Sequence record: NC_102605.1
DNA length: 50,633 bases
Source of the DNA: a phage
Strand: one strand, 5' to 3'
Below are positions 141 through 49,304 of the stretch, piece after piece; positions within the stretch are counted from its first letter, which is position 1, and each line of letters opens with the position of its first letter. The position numbers and the translations under genes were made by a program. A model generated the notes under the pieces. That model was not told the DNA's origin. It saw only the letters and a program-made list of their open reading frames with translations, and did no database searches.

Positions 141-574
141 TTTTTCTGTTGTTCTTATGTATACAATCAGAATATTGTTCTGTTTAGACGCCTTTTTGTG
201 TTTATTGCCTTTGATTTCAATGTTTTGCAGCGCGTTTTCAAAAACTACGCCGATTTCGGAACATACCCATATATATACATATACCCTGGAGCATACACAT
301 AACCATATAAAGTTAGAAAATATACGTGGGGTATCCCTATATATAGAGAACAAGCTAAACAAATAGAAACTTTTATAGATATATAAATAAAATTATCTTA
401 CTTTTTAGTATGTTATATGGTGATTCATTGTTGTTTTCTGTTTCGCTTTTTTACGGAAGGTAAACCCGTGAACATCGTGGAACGTTTTAGACAACGCGCA
501 AGACAGGGTGTGATGTTTTGCGGAAAAGTTTTCACGAGATCGGCAATGTGCAATCATTTCTACTCTCTCGCTAC

Positions 575-624
575 TCAAATCTAATCAAATCTAATCAAAT
601 CACATCACATCAACTCACACATCA
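575..624. repeat. Five tandem 10-bp units (TCAAATCTAA x2, TCAAATCACA, TCACATCAAC, TCACACATCA)
   Basis: Direct repeats with helical periodicity in a non-coding region. Confidence 0.7.
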
Positions 625-632
625 ATCATCAA

Positions 633-670
633 CGTGATCATATTGTGATCGCATAACGTGATCGTGAATC
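633..670. repeat. Clustered GTGATC / GTGAATC direct repeats (4 copies)
   Basis: cgtgatc, tgtgatc, cgtgatc, gtgaatc spaced 7-13 bp apart. Confidence 0.6.
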
Positions 671-699
671 CGTTCGATACAGGAAACGATGTGTTCATT

Positions 700-727
700 A
701 GACCAAACGGTCTAGACCAATCGGTCT
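700..727. promoter_or_regulatory. Two abutting 14-bp palindromes AGACC-N4-GGTCT; the junction forms a third palindrome GGTCTAGACC
   Basis: agaccaaacggtct followed by agaccaatcggtct, immediately upstream of the first dyad-motif cassette. Confidence 0.65.
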
Positions 728-734
728 ATCGCAT

Positions 735-756
735 GAATAGCACTTTTTGTTAAAAC
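735..756 (+). promoter_or_regulatory. Dyad-motif cassette (aatagcactttttgttaaaa), upstream of gene 812
   Basis: Motif, then tatgat about 22 bp after TTGTTA, then leader tcatcgaaacgaa, RBS and ATG. Confidence 0.6.
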
Positions 757-811
757 CAATCAGTCACGAATTGCTATGATTACTTCATCGAAACGAACTG
801 AGGAATTCACG

Positions 812-1246
812 ATGAAATACACAAACAAATACAACGGACAAACTTACTTCATCGAAAACGGCGTTGTGATGTTTGGTAGCGATGGGCTGTTTATGCAATC
901 ATATTCCAGCATTTCAGACTTCAACCGAATGATCGAGTTAGGCGAATTGGTTCCGGTCAAGCCAACGCGTGAAAACTTCCGAGATCTGGTTAACGAGGCA
1001 AAGAAAGACAATCCAGGCTTGCAAATCCGCTTTGTGGCATTCATCGCACACATTGGATTCAAAGAGGCTTACGCCGGAACGATACCACAACGTAACGCTC
1101 GCTTTATTCGTTGGATTACGGATCGAAAGGCTGATTATGTGCGTTTGCGTGGTCACATGGTTAAAAATGATTATTGCACTGGCTATCACAGCATTTTGGA
1201 TCATGACGATTTCACTGATTTCATTGTTTCCGGCGAATGGCTGTAA
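812..1246 (+). CDS. Hypothetical early protein (144 aa)
   Basis: ORF track 776..1246; internal ATG preceded by GAGGA RBS; no recognisable domain. Confidence 0.6.
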   Translation: MKYTNKYNGQTYFIENGVVMFGSDGLFMQSYSSISDFNRMIELGELVPVKPTRENFRDLVNEAKKDNPGLQIRFVAFIAHIGFKEAYAGTIPQRNARFIRWITDRKADYVRLRGHMVKNDYCTGYHSILDHDDFTDFIVSGEWL

Positions 1247-5830: not shown

Positions 5831-5845
5831 CACGAATTGCTAAAA
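5825..5845 (+). promoter_or_regulatory. Dyad-motif cassette (palindromic variant)
   Basis: aaatagcacgaattgctaaaa; hairpin gttgccg/cggcaac with tataat in the loop. Confidence 0.6.
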
Positions 5846-5897
5846 GGCTGTAGAATGTTGCCGTTATAATTAGCGGCAACAAGAAGGAGATTTTTAG

Positions 5898-14639: not shown

Positions 14640-14650
14640 TTTTTATCCTT

Positions 14651-14679
14651 TTGACTAAATGCCATTTGCGGCATATCAT
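14651..14679 (+). promoter_or_regulatory. Sigma70-type promoter TTGACT-17-TATCAT for the plus-strand HTH gene
   Basis: Canonical hexamers with 17-bp spacer; overlaps the divergent helicase cassette and its hairpin. Confidence 0.5.
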
Positions 14680-14700
14680 ACACAAACTTAATCAAGTTTT

Positions 14701-14720
14701 TTAGCAAAAAGTGCTATAGG
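14701..14720 (-). promoter_or_regulatory. Dyad-motif cassette (minus orientation) for the helicase gene
   Basis: Reverse complement tatagcactttttgctaaaa; tatgat about 21 bp downstream. Confidence 0.55.
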
Positions 14721-14727
14721 TGAAAAT

Positions 14728-15336
14728 ATGAGCGAAATCAAAATTGCCGCCTCAACTGGCGAAATAGACAAACGCACAATCAATGGTAACAACGGCGTAA
14801 GACGTGGTAAAGATCGCAAACGTCGCGCACCTGTTAGCGGTTATCTTGTATTAAAGGAAGAAGTAAGAGCCGGATTAAAAGCGCGGCTTGATGAAGTTGT
14901 CAACGCTTACGGCGGTTGCGCTGCCCTGGCGCGTGAAATTGGAGTTAACCTTAAAACAGTATGGGGATGGAAAGAGCGCGGCATGATTTCAACTAAAGGC
15001 GCTGAACTGATCCAGAAAGATTACCGCCGCAAAGGTTTTAACGGTTTCCGCGCTTCATATTGCCGTCCAGATATCAAGTTTGATAATAACGGCAAGCCAT
15101 TAGAGAATCGTTGCAGCAACAGAAAGCTGATGCGATTTGTAACCAAAGAGGAAGCGGAAGCAAGAGGATTTGTGCGGCCTTACGATCCGTTACGGTCTAT
15201 GAGTCCAGAAGAACGCGAGAAAGAGAAAGCGCGGCGCAAGGCTGAACGCGACAAGGCGAAAGAAGAACAGCGCAAAGCAAAGGAGGCCAATCAGAAGAAA
15301 CGCGTTGTGATTTCCGTCGATAGCACTGATTGCTAA
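14728..15336 (+). CDS. Cro/YdaS-like HTH DNA-binding protein with Lys/Arg/Glu-rich C-terminal tail (202 aa)
   Basis: HTH signature GGCAALAREIGVNLKTVWGWKERGMIS; AGGTGA RBS. Confidence 0.55.
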   Translation: MSEIKIAASTGEIDKRTINGNNGVRRGKDRKRRAPVSGYLVLKEEVRAGLKARLDEVVNAYGGCAALAREIGVNLKTVWGWKERGMISTKGAELIQKDYRRKGFNGFRASYCRPDIKFDNNGKPLENRCSNRKLMRFVTKEEAEARGFVRPYDPLRSMSPEEREKEKARRKAERDKAKEEQRKAKEANQKKRVVISVDSTDC

Positions 15337-15394
15337 AAATTCCGGCCTGGCATGGTTTATCATCGTGCCAGGTTTTTTATTTGGAGGTTGAGAA

Positions 15395-21544: not shown

Positions 21545-21580
21545 CTGCATTATAGGTCTTTGTTGCATGTAGTCAATACC
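21545..21580 (-). promoter_or_regulatory. Sigma70-type promoter TTGACT-16-TATAAT for the recombination operon
   Basis: Plus strand shows agtcaa and attata with a 16-bp spacer; homologous to the promoter at 105-140. Confidence 0.6.
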
Positions 21581-21920
21581 CTTTAAGTGTTCTTTTTGTT
21601 TTACATACGTTTATAGCTAGCACTGACAACAAAATAACATCGTAAGTTTATGATTTTACTGATTGTTGTTTTTGTGTTCCATTGTTAACGCATTTACGCC
21701 GCATACCATATATAAATACATACCATGTGATATATAACCATTAACCAATACAAAACACACAACCACCACAAACCATAGAGAACAACAGAAACAAGAAGAA
21801 TACAAATAGATATATATAATAATAATTAAACTCTAAGTGTATGTATTATATAGATATTTAATTTGTTCTTTTTGTTTTCAAGACGTTTTCAATTTTACGC
21901 CGGATTCAGTTGTGAACATC

Positions 21921-21966
21921 GTGGAACAAAAGAAAACAAAATGCCCCGACCGTTAAGCCAGGGCAT
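21921..21966 (-). terminator. Rho-independent terminator at the end of the late operon (after J)
   Basis: 7-bp stem aatgccc/gggcatt followed on the minus strand by ttgttttcttttgtt. Confidence 0.55.
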
Positions 21967-21981
21967 TGATTTACCTCCTTT

Positions 21982-24900
21982 TTATGCTTTGAATAGCAGA
22001 ACCGTTAAGATCGGCACTGCGTCTGCGTGGTTTAGATCTCCTGAATATGTAAGCGTTGTTGCTTGTCCTGCTGGCAACATAATGTAAGCACTACTACCGC
22101 CATGCATTGCAGTTGCTCTAACAGTTGCCAACCTTCCGCCATATGTTGAATCAACCCAAACAGTACCACCGCCCCATGCGCCGCCTGAGTAGGTGTAACC
22201 ATGCAAACCAACATACGGGATCACAAGGTGTCTGTTGTAGTTGACTGCCGGAATATTTACAGAACCCCAAATTGGCAATACAACAGCCTTTGCAACGTCT
22301 CCCTCAATTTTTTCAGCGTAAACAGTACCCCTAAACCATCCATCTTGCGCGTAAACGCTTCCGGTGAATGAACCATATGATGCGTAAACGCCACCCCTTA
22401 CAGTTACCTGGTTAAATTCAGCATAACCATTCTTATTAATCATCCAGCCAGCCGCGCCGCTACTCCAGTTGTTAGAGTTTATCTGATCTGCAATCTGTGC
22501 ATTACCGATAGAACCATTTTTAACAAGTAAGCTATTGATAAACACCTGATTATTTTCAACAACAAACGGCAATGTAAAGGCTCCGCTTTGAGCATTATTG
22601 ATGATCGCAAATCGTCCAGCATCAAACAGGAATTGTGATTTAACTCCGCTACCATCAGCGACAAGAGAAAGCGCCATACCTGCGCTATATTCCTGCCCGT
22701 TGTACCTGATCCCCAACTTAACGCCGTACATCGCACCAACGCTTGTACCGTTAACCCATGAATCAAGTTTCTGGTTAACCGCTGATTGGGTATCACCAAT
22801 TTGAGTTGATAACGCCCTATCCGCTGACGCTCGCGCTTCCGCTTCATTGGTGATTGCCTGGTTAACATCGGTTATCTGCGCTTTGATATCCTGCTTAACC
22901 CCATCAATTTCGCTCTCAAACGTAGCTGTAAGCTGATCAATCCTCTGGCTAATTGTTTCAGTGCTGTTAGCAATTACCTCTCTCAATTCGCTATTTTGAG
23001 CCGTTAATTTCTCGTCAAATTGCGCACTCATTTGAGTGACCTGCGTTACCCTTGCTTCTGTTTCGTCTGCAATGAGTTTCAGCGATTGCAAGAACTCCGC
23101 TTTACGCTTGCCGTTTTCAACTCGCATACGTCGCACATCTTTATCATTCGCCAATGCGTTTTCAATCACTGATTCCGCTGTGCTGTGGATCTTATCATTG
23201 GCCTTTATTGCGTTTTCCTGTAACCACTTATAGCCATCAGAATTTTCAATATCGACCTTAATATGATCCGTGATAATGCTTGTATCGTCGGAAGCCATGC
23301 CGCGCACAAAATCAGTCCAATCAGAAACGTTACCGATTTTGTCAACTGCCCTTGCCTTGTACCAGACAACATGACCCGCTGGCAGTATTGAATGCCAATA
23401 CTCATATTGCGGGAACGGTATTAGCGTTAAGAGCGTTGCTTCATCAACAATAGGATGACCATCAGAACCGTTCGGCGCTTGATGCAACTCAATATATGCC
23501 GTGTCTCCGCTTCCTTCTGGCATACCCCATTTAACGCGAATTCCGAAAACTTCATTATCAGACGCAGTAAGGTTAATTGGCCTTTCCGGTTCGCCAACCT
23601 TGCCAGTTAATCCGGCGCTTACAATGGCTGACCATCCAGACGCTGAACCATTCGCTGCAACAGATCTAACCCTTACGTGATAGTTTCCGGCGTAAATTCC
23701 TTCAACTTCCGTTTCCTTGTTGGCTGTGCGCGGCGTGTTGTTCCAGTTGCCATTGTCTTTTCTCCACTGCATTTCATAAAGGCTTGCATATTCAACCTTA
23801 TCCCATGAAACGTGCATTGTTTCCACGCTCGAGCCCTGGACAACTCGCGAATAAGATTCGATCTTGACGTTTTGCGGCGCTGGCAAAATGTCAGGCTGCA
23901 CGATTGAAGTCGGACGGTCATCAATGTTTACGCCATAATCAATTTCATCGTATTTGTTAGGATCGTATTCAACAGCCGTTATGTTGTAGGTAAATTCTTC
24001 ATCACCGTCACCCTTAGTGATTCCGGTTACAACATATCGTTGCTGTGCAATATCGGTTCGCTCAATTGCAAAAATGGTATCTGGCTGAACGTCAAAGCCA
24101 AATGTCGTGTTTAGCGTTAGCGTTTTACCGTCATCACTTACACGCGCAATGGTTCGACCAACTGGCTTACCATCCGGCTTATTTACCAGAATGCGATCAC
24201 CTGCTCTTGCGTCAACCTTAAACGGCGTGAACACCTGCAACCCGCTAACCTCCATCACGCGACCTGATAGATTCAGCGTTAGAGCGCTTGACCAAAAGTT
24301 ATCCGATACAACAATCACATCGCCTACGGTTGGGATCATACCTTCCAGACCTGTAGCAAAGTTTACCGTTGTGCTCTTGACGTTGGTTTTTAAAATCCAG
24401 CGTCCACGGCGGTTGGCTTCGCTGCGTCGTGTGCATCCAATCGCAGTAATTGACGTGCTGTTATAGCCAAAACGTAACGCCGCCTCCGTTTCGAAAACTC
24501 CCTCAACATCCTGTTGATACATGTTTTGTTCGTCGTCGAAAGTCACGTTGCATTGCGTGTACATGCTTTTTTCGCTGGCAAACGTGTAAGTGAATTCACC
24601 GTTAACCACGTTGTCATTAGTAAAGATGTATGACGCATCGCGAGGCTTATCGATCACGATTGAAAGGCTCTCACCATTCCAAAAGCTCATGCCACGGAAG
24701 ATTGAACAAATATCACGCACAAGCTGATACGCTTCTACCTGGCTCTGGATCACAACGTCGCAAAGATAGCGCGGCTCTGTTCCGCCTTTACTGTCTGGAA
24801 CCATCTGATCGCAATACTGCGCACATTCGTAAATGCTCCATTTATCAAGCGCGATGCCTAACTCTCTTTGATCGAGTCCGTAACGCTGATTGGTAATCAA

Positions 24901-25758
24901 ATCATACAGAACAAAAGCAGGGTTATTACTCCATGCCTTTTTCCAGGTTCCATCCCATGACCCTGAGTAAGTGCGGGAAATAGGATCATAATTTGACGGA
25001 ACATTAATGATTTTCCATTTTTTCTTAATGCTGATATTCGGCAACGCATTAGGGAATAATTCGCTGTCAAACTCAACATATACTAAACCAGTCAGGGGGT
25101 AACGAAATTTAGCGTCTACAACTTCCGCATAGCTTTGCATTTTAATCAGATCCGTTACCCTTGCTGACGTGCTATCTGTCAGGCGACGGACGCGCAATAA
25201 AACACGATCATTGAAAACAGGTAAATCAATTCGGCGGCTTCTGTCGTAACCGCTCATTGTTTTACCTTCAATTACATCATGCAAAACCTCTTTATATTCA
25301 GCACCATCAACAGCCATATCAACAGCATATTCAACGCGAACACCTGTTAGATCTCCGTTATCTTCCTGAGTAACCCCGCGAGGCATTAAAATTTTAATAC
25401 GGATCGCAGAAAGGTTTTTATTGGTAACAGAAATAATATAAGGCGTTGCGGCTGTCAGATCGCGAGCAACTGTAATTTCGCTGGCTGTATCAGTAAACCC
25501 CTGAATATAATCCTGCGTTTGCGTCCCCGGCCTGAATTCTGCCTTAACATTCTGAAAGTTTAGTGAACCATCCTGATTCATAACCGGAACGTCATCAAAA
25601 TATAAATCTTTCAATGAAAAGTCTGGATCAACTTCACCATCAGAAACGGCTAAAAGAATTCTGATCCTGTTAATTGAAATTAGGTTATCTTCCATTTCAA
25701 CAGGTGTATGAGGCTTTGAAGAACCGCCCTTACTTCCAGTTATCATATTTTTGATCAT
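21982..25758 (-). CDS. Central tail fibre / host-specificity protein (lambda J-like, 1258 aa)
   Basis: Size, position after the I-like gene, conserved J-like N-terminal region and FN3-like repeats. Confidence 0.85.
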   Translation of the reverse strand: MIKNMITGSKGGSSKPHTPVEMEDNLISINRIRILLAVSDGEVDPDFSLKDLYFDDVPVMNQDGSLNFQNVKAEFRPGTQTQDYIQGFTDTASEITVARDLTAATPYIISVTNKNLSAIRIKILMPRGVTQEDNGDLTGVRVEYAVDMAVDGAEYKEVLHDVIEGKTMSGYDRSRRIDLPVFNDRVLLRVRRLTDSTSARVTDLIKMQSYAEVVDAKFRYPLTGLVYVEFDSELFPNALPNISIKKKWKIINVPSNYDPISRTYSGSWDGTWKKAWSNNPAFVLYDLITNQRYGLDQRELGIALDKWSIYECAQYCDQMVPDSKGGTEPRYLCDVVIQSQVEAYQLVRDICSIFRGMSFWNGESLSIVIDKPRDASYIFTNDNVVNGEFTYTFASEKSMYTQCNVTFDDEQNMYQQDVEGVFETEAALRFGYNSTSITAIGCTRRSEANRRGRWILKTNVKSTTVNFATGLEGMIPTVGDVIVVSDNFWSSALTLNLSGRVMEVSGLQVFTPFKVDARAGDRILVNKPDGKPVGRTIARVSDDGKTLTLNTTFGFDVQPDTIFAIERTDIAQQRYVVTGITKGDGDEEFTYNITAVEYDPNKYDEIDYGVNIDDRPTSIVQPDILPAPQNVKIESYSRVVQGSSVETMHVSWDKVEYASLYEMQWRKDNGNWNNTPRTANKETEVEGIYAGNYHVRVRSVAANGSASGWSAIVSAGLTGKVGEPERPINLTASDNEVFGIRVKWGMPEGSGDTAYIELHQAPNGSDGHPIVDEATLLTLIPFPQYEYWHSILPAGHVVWYKARAVDKIGNVSDWTDFVRGMASDDTSIITDHIKVDIENSDGYKWLQENAIKANDKIHSTAESVIENALANDKDVRRMRVENGKRKAEFLQSLKLIADETEARVTQVTQMSAQFDEKLTAQNSELREVIANSTETISQRIDQLTATFESEIDGVKQDIKAQITDVNQAITNEAEARASADRALSTQIGDTQSAVNQKLDSWVNGTSVGAMYGVKLGIRYNGQEYSAGMALSLVADGSGVKSQFLFDAGRFAIINNAQSGAFTLPFVVENNQVFINSLLVKNGSIGNAQIADQINSNNWSSGAAGWMINKNGYAEFNQVTVRGGVYASYGSFTGSVYAQDGWFRGTVYAEKIEGDVAKAVVLPIWGSVNIPAVNYNRHLVIPYVGLHGYTYSGGAWGGGTVWVDSTYGGRLATVRATAMHGGSSAYIMLPAGQATTLTYSGDLNHADAVPILTVLLFKA

Positions 25759-25769
25759 AGCTTTTAACC

Positions 25770-25790
25770 TTTTGTGCTATTTAAACGTGC
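25770..25790 (-). promoter_or_regulatory. Dyad-motif variant (aaatagcac-aaaag-gttaaaa) abutting the J start codon
   Basis: Motif halves present, but no room for a -10 before the ATG. Confidence 0.35.
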
Positions 25791-25805
25791 TGCCATTGTA
25801 CATGT

Positions 25806-25835
25806 AACAAAAAACCCGCGCAACGGCGGGTTTAT
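25806..25835 (-). terminator. Intrinsic terminator/attenuator between the I-like and J-like genes
   Basis: aaacccgc-cgttgc-gcgggttt followed by tttgtta on the minus strand. Confidence 0.55.
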
Positions 25836-25839
25836 ATAA

Positions 25840-26439
25840 TTAAAGTTTATCTTCTGCGTATGAGCCAGCACTGAATACAGCGCCGCCAACCGTTCTATAA
25901 CCATACGGCAAACATACCGGATAACCTGCCGCCGTAGTATTAACAGCACCACCAAACGCATATGATGGTTTATTTGCTGCGCTTTGGCTCTCCATTCTCA
26001 TTCCTCCTTGTTGTGGGCTAATCATTTGCATTACGCCGCCAAGAGCCATTGCTCCACCCATCATAAATGCAGCCGATGAAAAAGCACCCATAGCCGCCAG
26101 CGATGCACCACCAGTGAAAAACGCAGTGACCATAATAACAGCACCCAAAACAACTTGGAATAAACCGCCACTTTTTGAACCTGTTGGAACCGGAACAATT
26201 CGAACCTCGCGAGCGCAACGCCATGCGCTATCATTATTCAGGCCAACATTTTTACCATCAACGAAAATTGCAAATTTCATCTTTGATCCGATTTCACTTT
26301 GCATAAATTCTTTGAATCCTTCAACCTGGCTTGATAATGCCCTTACGCATTCAGGCCAACTATCAACAGCATATTTATGGAAAACACCAAAACGGCGACC
26401 TAATGAGCCTGATAATTTTACGTTGATAACCTTATTCAT
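25840..26439 (-). CDS. Tail assembly protein (lambda I-like)
   Basis: Size, position between K-like and J-like genes, Gly/Ala-rich hydrophobic C-terminus. Confidence 0.7.
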   Translation of the reverse strand: MNKVINVKLSGSLGRRFGVFHKYAVDSWPECVRALSSQVEGFKEFMQSEIGSKMKFAIFVDGKNVGLNNDSAWRCAREVRIVPVPTGSKSGGLFQVVLGAVIMVTAFFTGGASLAAMGAFSSAAFMMGGAMALGGVMQMISPQQGGMRMESQSAANKPSYAFGGAVNTTAAGYPVCLPYGYRTVGGAVFSAGSYAEDKL

Positions 26440-27154: not shown

Positions 27155-27909
27155 TGGTTTTTCCTCAATAGTGATGCAACCGCGCAACCGCCGAAATCTA
27201 ATTCATTTTGAGCGCCAAAGCGCAATTTACAGGCTGTAACCGTTCCGGCGCAATAATCCTTGCTCGGATCTGTTACCGGATTATTGTCTTTATCGAACAT
27301 TGCCGATCCGTTATATCCGCAACCTTTCCCGCTTCTATACCATCCCCTTTGCGCCCAATAACAAACGCTTTGCGTGAGTCGTGGCGGGATCATAATTCCA
27401 TCCATATCATAAGGTGATGTTAATTCAAAACGTGCAACTGTCTGATTAACAAAATTCGGACGCTCAATATAATAAACCAGCTTTCTATATGCGCCGTCCT
27501 CCACGTTTCCTTCTTCATCAATTAAATCAGCCGATGTAACCCAAATTGTTACTTTGGCTTGCATCATGCCATTATATGATCTGATTAATGCAGATACGCG
27601 GCTATCTAAATTTGAAAGCGCTAATTGTGGTTTCTCTGCCTTTCCGTTACTTGTAAAGCCAATGCCAGTAATCCCAAAAGGCCGCGCCCCGTAAACCTCG
27701 CCACGGAATTTAATATCTTTCGGCGGCAATATTCCAGTTTCACGCGCTTGCATTAATTCCTCTGGCGTGTACGCGATATTTTCAGCATGAAAGCGGTAAA
27801 CCTGCGCACCAAATTTTGTGCCGTCAACCTCAACAAGCGTAATTATTTCACCAGGGAAAAGCGATTGCAGACAATTTTCAAAAGTCTTTTTGATCTGTTT
27901 TTCAGCCAT
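27151..27909 (-). CDS. Minor tail protein (lambda L-like)
   Basis: Size, order and C-terminal Cys cluster typical of L. Confidence 0.7.
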   Translation of the reverse strand: MAEKQIKKTFENCLQSLFPGEIITLVEVDGTKFGAQVYRFHAENIAYTPEELMQARETGILPPKDIKFRGEVYGARPFGITGIGFTSNGKAEKPQLALSNLDSRVSALIRSYNGMMQAKVTIWVTSADLIDEEGNVEDGAYRKLVYYIERPNFVNQTVARFELTSPYDMDGIMIPPRLTQSVCYWAQRGWYRSGKGCGYNGSAMFDKDNNPVTDPSKDYCAGTVTACKLRFGAQNELDFGGCAVASLLRKNQ

Positions 27910-27976
27910 ATTCTATGCCCTCCAATAAAGCACCATTATAGACACAATAAAAAAGCCGCACAATGGCGGCTTTGAT

Positions 27977-31902: not shown

Positions 31903-31947
31903 TGTCATTTCTCCTGAGTGGTTAAATATTGAGGTGATATTACATCA

Positions 31948-31980
31948 AATAAAAAAGGGACGCAATGCGCCCCTTTAAAT
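31948..31980 (-). terminator. Rho-independent terminator immediately after the major tail protein gene
   Basis: 10-bp stem (aaaggggcgc/gcgtcccttt with one G-U pair) followed by ttttttatttg on the minus strand. Confidence 0.7.
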
Positions 31981-35612: not shown

Positions 35613-35655
35613 AATATTTCCCCTCATAGAAAAGCCGTCATAATAACGGCTTTAA

Positions 35656-35675
35656 TATAGCATTTTTTGTTAAAC
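35656..35675 (+). promoter_or_regulatory. Orphan dyad motif in plus orientation inside the minus-strand late operon
   Basis: atagcattttttgttaaa with no plus-strand gene downstream; a hairpin with tattatg loop lies between it and the capsid RBS. Confidence 0.4.
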
Positions 35676-35701
35676 GTTCAAGTGTTTTTTGTGTTAGCAC
35701 G

Positions 35702-46370: not shown

Positions 46371-46427
46371 TCGTCATTCTCCTTGCTTGTCTCGACAAGG
46401 CACACTTTATCAAATGTGCCTTAGCAA

Positions 46428-46448
46428 GTTTTAGCAAAAAGTGCTATT
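46428..46448 (-). promoter_or_regulatory. Dyad-motif cassette (minus orientation)
   Basis: Reverse complement of the motif; hairpin aaggcaca/tgtgcctt. Confidence 0.55.
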
Positions 46449-49283: not shown

Positions 49284-49304
49284 TTTTAACAAAAAGTGCT
49301 ATTT
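49284..49304 (-). promoter_or_regulatory. Dyad-motif cassette (minus orientation)
   Basis: Reverse complement aaatagcactttttgttaaaa. Confidence 0.55.

Follow-up and report, generated by a model that had tools for sequence, protein, structure and literature searches.

A copy of a marbox-like phage promoter repeat in the leader of the tail tip gene J of a Tlsvirus

The motif that stands directly before the J-like tail tip gene of a Tlsvirus phage is a genuine member of a family of 21-nt repeats and no chance match. Judging from the layout of the other copies this family is better read as an asymmetric, marbox-like promoter element than as the dyad described in an earlier sequence-only reading of the same DNA. 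At J the motif has no -10 hexamer of its own and lies downstream of a promoter that we infer for J, and we propose, with somewhat less than even confidence, that it may be an operator-like site at which the activator of the early promoters damps or times J transcription. The DNA analysed (sequence record NC_102605.1, 50,633 nt), referred to as the window, is a complete Drexlerviridae (T1-like) genome of the genus Tlsvirus.

The I-J gap and the predicted promoter of J

The structural genes of the window lie on the minus strand, and its I-J region is 99% identical to that of Citrobacter phage CF1 and 96-98% identical to those of phages Sazh, Stevie, LL5 and DanielBernoulli. From the open reading frame list and the annotations of relatives the J-like tail tip / host specificity gene (1258 aa) was placed at 21982..25758 and its upstream neighbour, the gene for tail assembly protein I, at 25840..26439, both on the minus strand and separated by a gap of 81 nt. 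Read on the minus strand this gap begins with the TAA stop codon of gene I followed by a hairpin and a T run, and continues with gttacatg, the hexamer TACAAT, ggcagcacgttt, the repeat copy AAATAGCAC-aaaag-GTTAAAA, the trinucleotide gct and the J ATG. The sequence-only reading had the motif string right but placed it at 25770-25790, a shift of 8 nt. The copy occupies 25762..25782 on the minus strand, with AAATAGCAC at 25782..25774, aaaag at 25773..25769 and GTTAAAA at 25768..25762, and a 20-bp marbox-like core ATAGCACAAAAGGTTAAAAG covers 25780..25761. It is intergenic, lies on the same strand as J and ends 3 nt from the ATG, which bears out the earlier statement that the motif adjoins the start codon. 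A weak Shine-Dalgarno sequence, AAGG (25768..25771, minus strand), lies inside the motif 9 nt before the ATG and the equivalent AGGT is annotated as the ribosome-binding site in phage Sazh.

The repeat has been described in the re-annotation of phage TLS (German, Kropinski et al. 2024, PMC11447400) as a 21-nt direct repeat with the consensus aaATAGCACnnnTTGnTAAAA, present in 21 copies of which 18 are intergenic and found ~76 nt from the start codon downstream. No function was assigned, a stoperator, an enhancer site and an UP element being suggested, and the supplement places the copy DR8 immediately after terminator T49 and before gp50/J. Against this consensus the J copy has ATAGCAC and TAAAA, its best conserved parts at the 5' and 3' side, exactly and carries AGG in place of TTG. 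When a free 5-nt spacer is allowed the pattern AAATAGCACNNNNNGTTAAAA has seven exact matches against 0.00 expected, the J site among them, and the arms of the J copy match at all 16 of 16 positions. A weight matrix made from the 21 other copies, which themselves score 16.5-35 bits, gives the J copy 18.8 bits, placing it at rank 21 of ~101,000 positions and above one promoter-type copy, and at this score level shuffled genomes hold 0.02 matches each.

Counted from the first A of the motif the J ATG stands at offset 24, and offset 40, where other copies have their -10, reads TAACTG within J codons 6-7, in line with the earlier remark that there is no room here for a -10, and the copy cannot serve as a promoter of the common type. 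The J copies of the relatives likewise have no -10 at offset 40. A promoter inside J driven by the copy was rejected on this ground, the hexamer being TAAGCG in T1. An antisense promoter using the J copy as spacer or as class I box was also rejected, usable hexamers being absent, as was a plus-strand TATAAT at 25835 as an antisense -10, which is not conserved.

What the earlier reading had missed is that J appears to have a sigma70-type promoter of its own, P_J, set inside the upstream terminator. Its -10 hexamer TACAAT lies at 25795..25800 on the minus strand with a predicted start at ~25788, and 17 bp from it a -35-like TTGCGC (25818..25823, minus strand) occupies the hairpin loop of the intrinsic terminator that follows gene I (25805..25833, minus strand; stem-loop 25833..25812 and T run), which is an annotated terminator in Sazh and T49 in TLS. 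In all genera examined the stop codon is followed by a hairpin with TTGCGC/TTGTGG or similar in its loop, a T run and a -10, with a 17-bp spacer leading to TAYAAT, TAGAAT or TATACT. The mean pairwise identity of the -10 is 0.95 in 31 distinct relatives, mostly Tempevirinae and T1-like phages. P_J was not called in a strict sigma70 consensus scan because its -35 matches at only 3/6 positions, and it is predicted from conservation. With the start predicted from the -10 the 20-bp box would span ~+9..+28 and the ATG would stand at +31, which would make the J copy a downstream, operator-like site.

Terminator-embedded sigma70-type promoters also occur at 27910..27976 and 31909..31979 (minus strand), before the genes starting at 27909 and 31908, each with TTG in the hairpin loop, 17 bp and TATAAT or TAATAT. 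Neither of these two cassettes has a repeat copy in its leader, the J cassette being the only one that does. In the IMG/VR contig L045 the I-J gap has lost its terminator stem (acccgctccgcattca) but retains an undamaged T run, -10 and leader block. In Warwickvirus mar001J1 the I-J gap has taken up an HNH endonuclease gene (355..990 of that sequence) along with a canonical repeat-type promoter for it, which shares bases with the gene I stop codon; downstream of the insert the J-leader copy, the -10 and the terminator all persist. At the other end of J a 413-bp AT-rich non-coding gap (21569..21981) separates its stop codon from the exonuclease gene and contains a 25-nt direct repeat (21588 and 21864) and, at its end, a near-consensus sigma70 promoter (TTGACT 21576, minus strand). 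A search of the literature found no transcriptome or start-site map of any Drexlerviridae phage.

The repeat family and its likeness to the marbox

This Tlsvirus genome holds ~22 copies of the 21-nt repeat. In ~20 of them a TATAAT-like hexamer, often TGn-extended, stands at offset 39-40 (counting from the initial A of the motif), 18 bp beyond the box, and is followed by a CATCGAAAC-like start region, a Shine-Dalgarno sequence and an ATG ~75 nt downstream. These promoter-type copies are found at 735, 1245, 1894, 2798, 3730, 5145, 5825 and 15318 on the plus strand and at 49304, 48894, 48266, 48014, 47638, 46449, 45347, 44025, 20466, 14719, 12261 and 10903 on the minus strand. All of them are co-oriented with the downstream gene. 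The genes that follow them, on both arms, are those of the early, replication and recombination sets, never a structural gene. Going by this layout, what was published as 'direct repeats' makes up the upstream half of stereotyped promoters. The same genome-wide layout is present in Hanrivervirus, Veterinaerplatzvirus, Webervirus, Nouzillyvirus and Jhansiroadvirus, and since the motif is identical across these genera and Tlsvirus, covariation of the J copy with the motif genus by genus is uninformative.

Two further features of these promoters were observed. Often the upstream gene terminates at the TAG in AAATAGCAC or the TAA in GCTAAAA (e.g. the ORF ends 5150, 5830, 3748, 44020, 45342, 12256 and 10898), so that gene ends overlap the next promoter. 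Strong inverted repeats whose sequences are not conserved were seen at offsets +20..+62 in 16-17 of the 20 repeat-type promoters, placed either so that they directly precede the -10 or so that their loop contains it (e.g. 46429..46388, 15338..15379 and 5845..5886), with a mean folding energy of -12.8 kcal/mol against -5.3 kcal/mol in shuffles; ends of upstream transcripts and supercoil-driven exposure of the -10 are possibilities.

The marbox recognised by MarA, SoxS, Rob and RamA is an asymmetric 20-bp sequence, AYnGCACnnWnnRYYAAAYn, the classical consensus AYnGCACnnWnnRYYAAA reportedly going back to Martin and colleagues in 1999. The pattern AYNGCACNNWNNRYYAAA has 19 matches against 0.08 expected, every one of them a repeat copy and the J copy included. 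With the consensus of the Grainger laboratory, GCAnnWWnTGnnAAA, there are 21 exact matches in the window against 1.86 expected. The J copy differs from this 15-mer at one position: it reads GG, whereas TG stands in the ChIP-derived consensus and in nearly all promoter-type copies. In class II promoters a forward box overlaps the -35, and the micF box, read from E. coli MG1655 as ACAGCACTGAATGTCAAAAC, lies 18 bp from its -10 TAGAAT. The G of GCAC is 35 nt from the -10 in micF and in the phage repeat promoters alike, and the marbox of the mar operon agrees with the repeat at 16/20 bases. The class II spacing of 18-19 bp to the -10 is present in ~20 copies and absent from the J copy. In the cryo-EM complex of Rob the protein contacts -47G and -45A and sigma region 4 is displaced from the -35, and the register of the phage repeats, as read from the sequence, agrees with these contacts. 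Marbox-like sequences number ~10,000 in E. coli and are mostly non-functional. Our literature search found no link between the marbox and phage promoters.

The marbox-like reading is thus based on ~20 copies standing 18 bp before a -10, on the match to the marbox consensus and on the class II register of micF, and the description as a dyad gives way to it. The only palindromic part of the family is the core TAGCA/TGCTA of some copies, which in the J copy becomes TAGCA/GGTTA with 3/5 positions complementary, and the flanks that are invariant across the family are asymmetric. These flanks together with C9 break the dyad symmetry, which would fit a monomer with two HTH motifs. Two other readings of the element were tried and rejected: TTGYTA as a -35, which lies 21-22 bp from the -10 in the copies counted, and a sigma54 -24/-12 element, which on inspection fails because the G of AGCAC and the GC are spaced by 9 and not 11 and because the GC is not conserved.

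Besides the J copy there is a second orphan (DR7 of TLS, 35655..35675, plus strand), which lies in a good sigma70-like promoter for the major capsid gene. Reversed, it makes up the entire 16-bp spacer between TTGAAC (35681..35676) and TATATT (35659..35654) on the minus strand, and the same construction is found in T1 (TTGACG-16-TATTAT), Vc1, Hanrivervirus and Nouzillyvirus. The capsid promoter is followed at once by a terminator-like hairpin (35650..35634) and a T run, and the major capsid gene probably starts at its second ATG, 35612, with GAGGGGA as Shine-Dalgarno sequence. A third placement concerns the copy of the helicase promoter (14699..14719, minus strand), which, counted from the consensus sigma70 promoter that drives a Cro-like regulator gene (plus strand; TTGACT 14651, 17 bp, TATCAT 14674), also covers ~+13..+33 and ends 8 nt before the ATG of that gene at 14728. 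The region 14640..14727 is bidirectional, nearly the same -10 bases driving the helicase gene on the minus strand (TATGAT), with the upstream element of each promoter in the leader of the other, an arrangement conserved in five genera. The repeat therefore lies in or just after the core of three sigma70-type promoters, those of J, the capsid gene and the Cro-like gene, two of which drive late genes.

A host protein is favoured by the asymmetric sequence, by its agreement with the consensus and by the exact class II register, and the binder is most likely, as far as the sequence can tell, a two-HTH monomer of the MarA/SoxS/Rob type. An AraC-type HTH was sought in 11 mid-sized phage ORFs and none was found. 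When the Keio collection was screened with Tlsvirus LL5 (97% identical), the genes recovered were confined to those of the LPS core, tolC, secB and ppiB; rob, marA and soxS were not among the genes this phage required. This would argue against an essential role for any single host factor, although redundancy of MarA, SoxS and Rob or basal activity of the promoters could mask an effect. The same marbox-like promoters are present in Vibrio phage Vc1 (Jhansiroadvirus), recorded on Vibrio cholerae; if its host has no MarA/SoxS/Rob homologues this would argue for a phage-encoded binder.

The candidate among phage proteins, and the closest to the 'dyad-binding protein' of the sequence-only reading, is the Cro-like single-HTH regulator (14728..15336, plus strand). 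Bound as a dimer to TAGCA-N5-TGYTA it would activate the early promoters from ~-42, repress its own promoter and weakly repress P_J. It is the sole predicted DNA-binding protein annotated in this Tlsvirus, is found in ~822 phage records and essentially the whole family, and has an all-alpha, Cro / C-protein-like predicted fold (pLDDT 83; best matches Xfaso1 Cro and N15 Cro). In 5/5 genera checked a repeat copy stands between the -10 of its own promoter and its ATG, the dyad centre at ~-42 resembles the position of the site of lambda cI at PRM, and single knock-outs of rob, marA or soxS do not block LL5. We nevertheless consider this regulator an unlikely binder. The invariant positions, AAA..GCAC against TAAAA, are asymmetric and C9 has no symmetric partner, half of the copies have GTTAAAA with 4/5 dyad matches and the J copy only 3/5, and the marbox match together with the exact micF spacing would have to be a coincidence. 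The copy in the leader of the regulator gene, moreover, already has an explanation, since it serves the divergent helicase promoter as upstream element.

Possible roles of the J copy

A protein bound at the J copy could plausibly restrain J, to judge by the position of the site. The way proposed for this in the sequence-only reading, occlusion of the J ribosome-binding site, is unlikely, since a protein bound to DNA does not cover the ribosome-binding site on the mRNA, and for the same reason any brake acting through the J copy would be transcriptional. In the operator-like mechanism that we put forward tentatively, the factor that switches on the early and middle promoters would also occupy the J copy, where it would overlap the downstream DNA held by RNA polymerase, roughly to +20, and by this overlap transcription from P_J would be damped or delayed and read-through from upstream hindered. 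The copy in the capsid spacer would follow the same logic, one factor turning on early promoters and holding back two late ones, and this restraint would last until the factor had decayed or been titrated. Within the J copy the 3' half would double as Shine-Dalgarno sequence and A-rich spacer and so have two jobs. A monomeric activator, however, would be a weak roadblock, which counts against the operator reading.

In an alignment of 31 distinct I-J gaps of relatives the block A-[T/C]-A-GCAC-AAAAGG-T(T)AAA is kept across Tempevirinae, T1 and some other genera, and specifically in Tlsvirus, Hanrivervirus, Changchunvirus, Vilniusvirus, Warwickvirus, Nouzillyvirus and T1. Pairwise identity averages 0.83 within the block and 0.52 and 0.35 in its two leader flanks, and by this measure selection acts on the block. 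Its conservation is in part, as the pattern indicates, translational and answers to the needs of the Shine-Dalgarno sequence and its spacer, which also make up about half of the J copy. The GG of the Shine-Dalgarno sequence is invariant in the 31 relatives, and GCAC stands 15 nt from the ATG in all of them except the indel-shifted, unverified genome L002 (14 nt) while its distance from the -10 ranges from 15 to 17 nt, so that the block is tied to the start codon and not to the promoter. Variation is free in the 12-14 nt that separate the block from the -10 and in the final 2-3 nt ahead of the ATG.

These constraints suit an explanation in which the block is only a translation-initiation leader that is not bound as DNA and owes its likeness to the repeat to descent or to A-rich convergence. 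It would also agree with the leader being predicted unstructured, and the groups that lack the block or have it in degraded form (Braunvirinae, Webervirus, Kyungwonvirus and Jhansiroadvirus) retain P_J and simply have other leaders bearing a Shine-Dalgarno sequence, which shows the J-leader copy to be dispensable. We judge this explanation improbable since several features are left over once translation has been accounted for. The near-invariant A-[T/C]-A-G-C-A-C lies 5-11 nt upstream of the Shine-Dalgarno sequence, and the left arm alone matches at 9/9 positions in Tlsvirus, T1 and Hanrivervirus. Nearly all lineages have 0-1 mismatch to the 20-bp marbox consensus. The substitutions in the block fall at degenerate marbox positions (Y2 as T or C, n8, n12 and Y19), G4, C5, A6, A16 and A17 being invariant except in phage CS01 and L002. 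In T1 the AAA is still in the marbox register although the Shine-Dalgarno sequence has moved by 1 nt. An RNA leader element or translational operator was rejected, as no conserved structure and no Rfam family could be assigned: the fold z-score of the J leader is 0.58 and not significant, its 5-bp AUAGC/GCUAU stem is not conserved in T1, and a comparison with Rfam gave no match.

That the J copy is the relic of a repeat-type promoter, or a recombination linker for tail-fibre modules, with no present regulatory role is an explanation to which we give little credence. Repeat promoters do travel with inserted genes, as with the HNH gene between I and J in Warwickvirus, J is prone to mosaicism, and the block is missing from several genera with no obvious consequence. 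A relic would, however, be expected to decay, and the block is far better conserved than its flanks even though J N-termini share only 68% identity, while gene conversion from other copies would import a TTTTT/GAATT spacer and TG. Least probable of all is a positive role, in which a bound factor would help J by distorting DNA near the start, recruiting polymerase or keeping the leader open, as MarA within the flgBP2 core promoter activates and some AraC-family activators such as Rns use sites downstream of the start: the J copy begins 14 nt past the -10 and beyond the region of the flgB mechanism, the near-consensus -10 of P_J needs no aid in melting, and both documented spacer marboxes of sigma70 promoters, those of pbpG and rob, repress.

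Beyond J, it is conceivable though rather doubtful that the Drexlerviridae programme as a whole is wired to MarA, SoxS and Rob, with ~20 class II marbox promoters and with orphan boxes that make late genes respond in the opposite sense. To our knowledge T1-like phages have no RNA polymerase or sigma factor of their own. If such wiring exists, decay or titration of the host factor would act as an early-to-late timer, and the antibiotic, oxidative or bile stress state of the host would tune phage development. Common enteric phages would, if the repeat is a marbox, depend on and be tunable by host drug-resistance regulators, the two orphan copies at late promoters would form a simple early-to-late switch, and the matter would bear on phage therapy given with antibiotics or under bile exposure. 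MarA, SoxS and Rob also raise TolC, the receptor of TLS. Drexlerviridae promoters as class II marbox promoters would be a more interesting result than the J copy itself, which if it were only leader sequence would be an ordinary finding.

Comparison with known systems

The J copy is already catalogued as DR8 of TLS, with the same sequence, place, consensus and A/T/G spacer types, while its position and likely nature are new to the literature searched. It shares with the published repeats the consensus and an intergenic, co-oriented placement and departs from them in its distance to the start codon, given there as ~76 nt. The TLS paper (PMC11447400) is silent on the fixed -10, the marbox match, the lack of a -10 at DR8 3 nt from the ATG and the promoter in T49.

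The arrangement of terminator and promoter before J has a counterpart in T1, where Roberts et al. 2004, as quoted in the TLS paper, describe late 'transcriptons', modules that have RpoD promoters and are flanked by terminators. That description fits P_J and the cassettes before 27909 and 31908, each a terminator and a promoter before a late gene.

In micF-type class II promoters an asymmetric 20-bp box is composed of GCAC (A site) and YYAAA (B site), as in the repeat. The J copy, unlike these boxes, sits downstream of its promoter and is neither class I nor class II, and the phage genome differs in holding >20 near-identical copies to which binding of MarA, SoxS and Rob is putative.

The stoperators of mycobacteriophage L5, an analogy proposed by the TLS authors (PMC11447400), resemble the J copy in being asymmetric, in lying co-oriented in transcribed regions and in being proposed to impede polymerase. 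They are, however, many, independent of promoters and bound by the phage repressor, whereas here all but two copies are in promoters and the phage is virulent. Identity with stoperators was rejected, there being only two orphan copies, one of them antisense, and the other copies having a -10 at a fixed distance. An UP element, the A/T-rich alpha-CTD site at -40 to -60, was likewise rejected for the J copy, which is downstream of the only nearby promoter, and for the family, whose invariant GCAC is atypical.

At the pbpG promoter a marbox overlaps the core promoter and MarA, SoxS and Rob repress. The layout there, with the marbox in the spacer, is that of the orphan copy in the capsid promoter. 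Further repressive marboxes overlapping core promoters are those of rob, purA and hdeA, in rob again in the spacer of a sigma70 promoter. MarA inside the sigma28 core promoter flgBP2 activates by distorting base pairing, and since MarA inside a promoter can thus also activate, the sign of any marbox effect is uncertain from sequence. Unlike the pbpG marbox the J copy, at ~+9..+28, would be outside the -35 and -10. With the conserved -35/-10 upstream placing the site at this predicted position, its position is closer to that of an operator of the lac O1 type, which is centred at +11.
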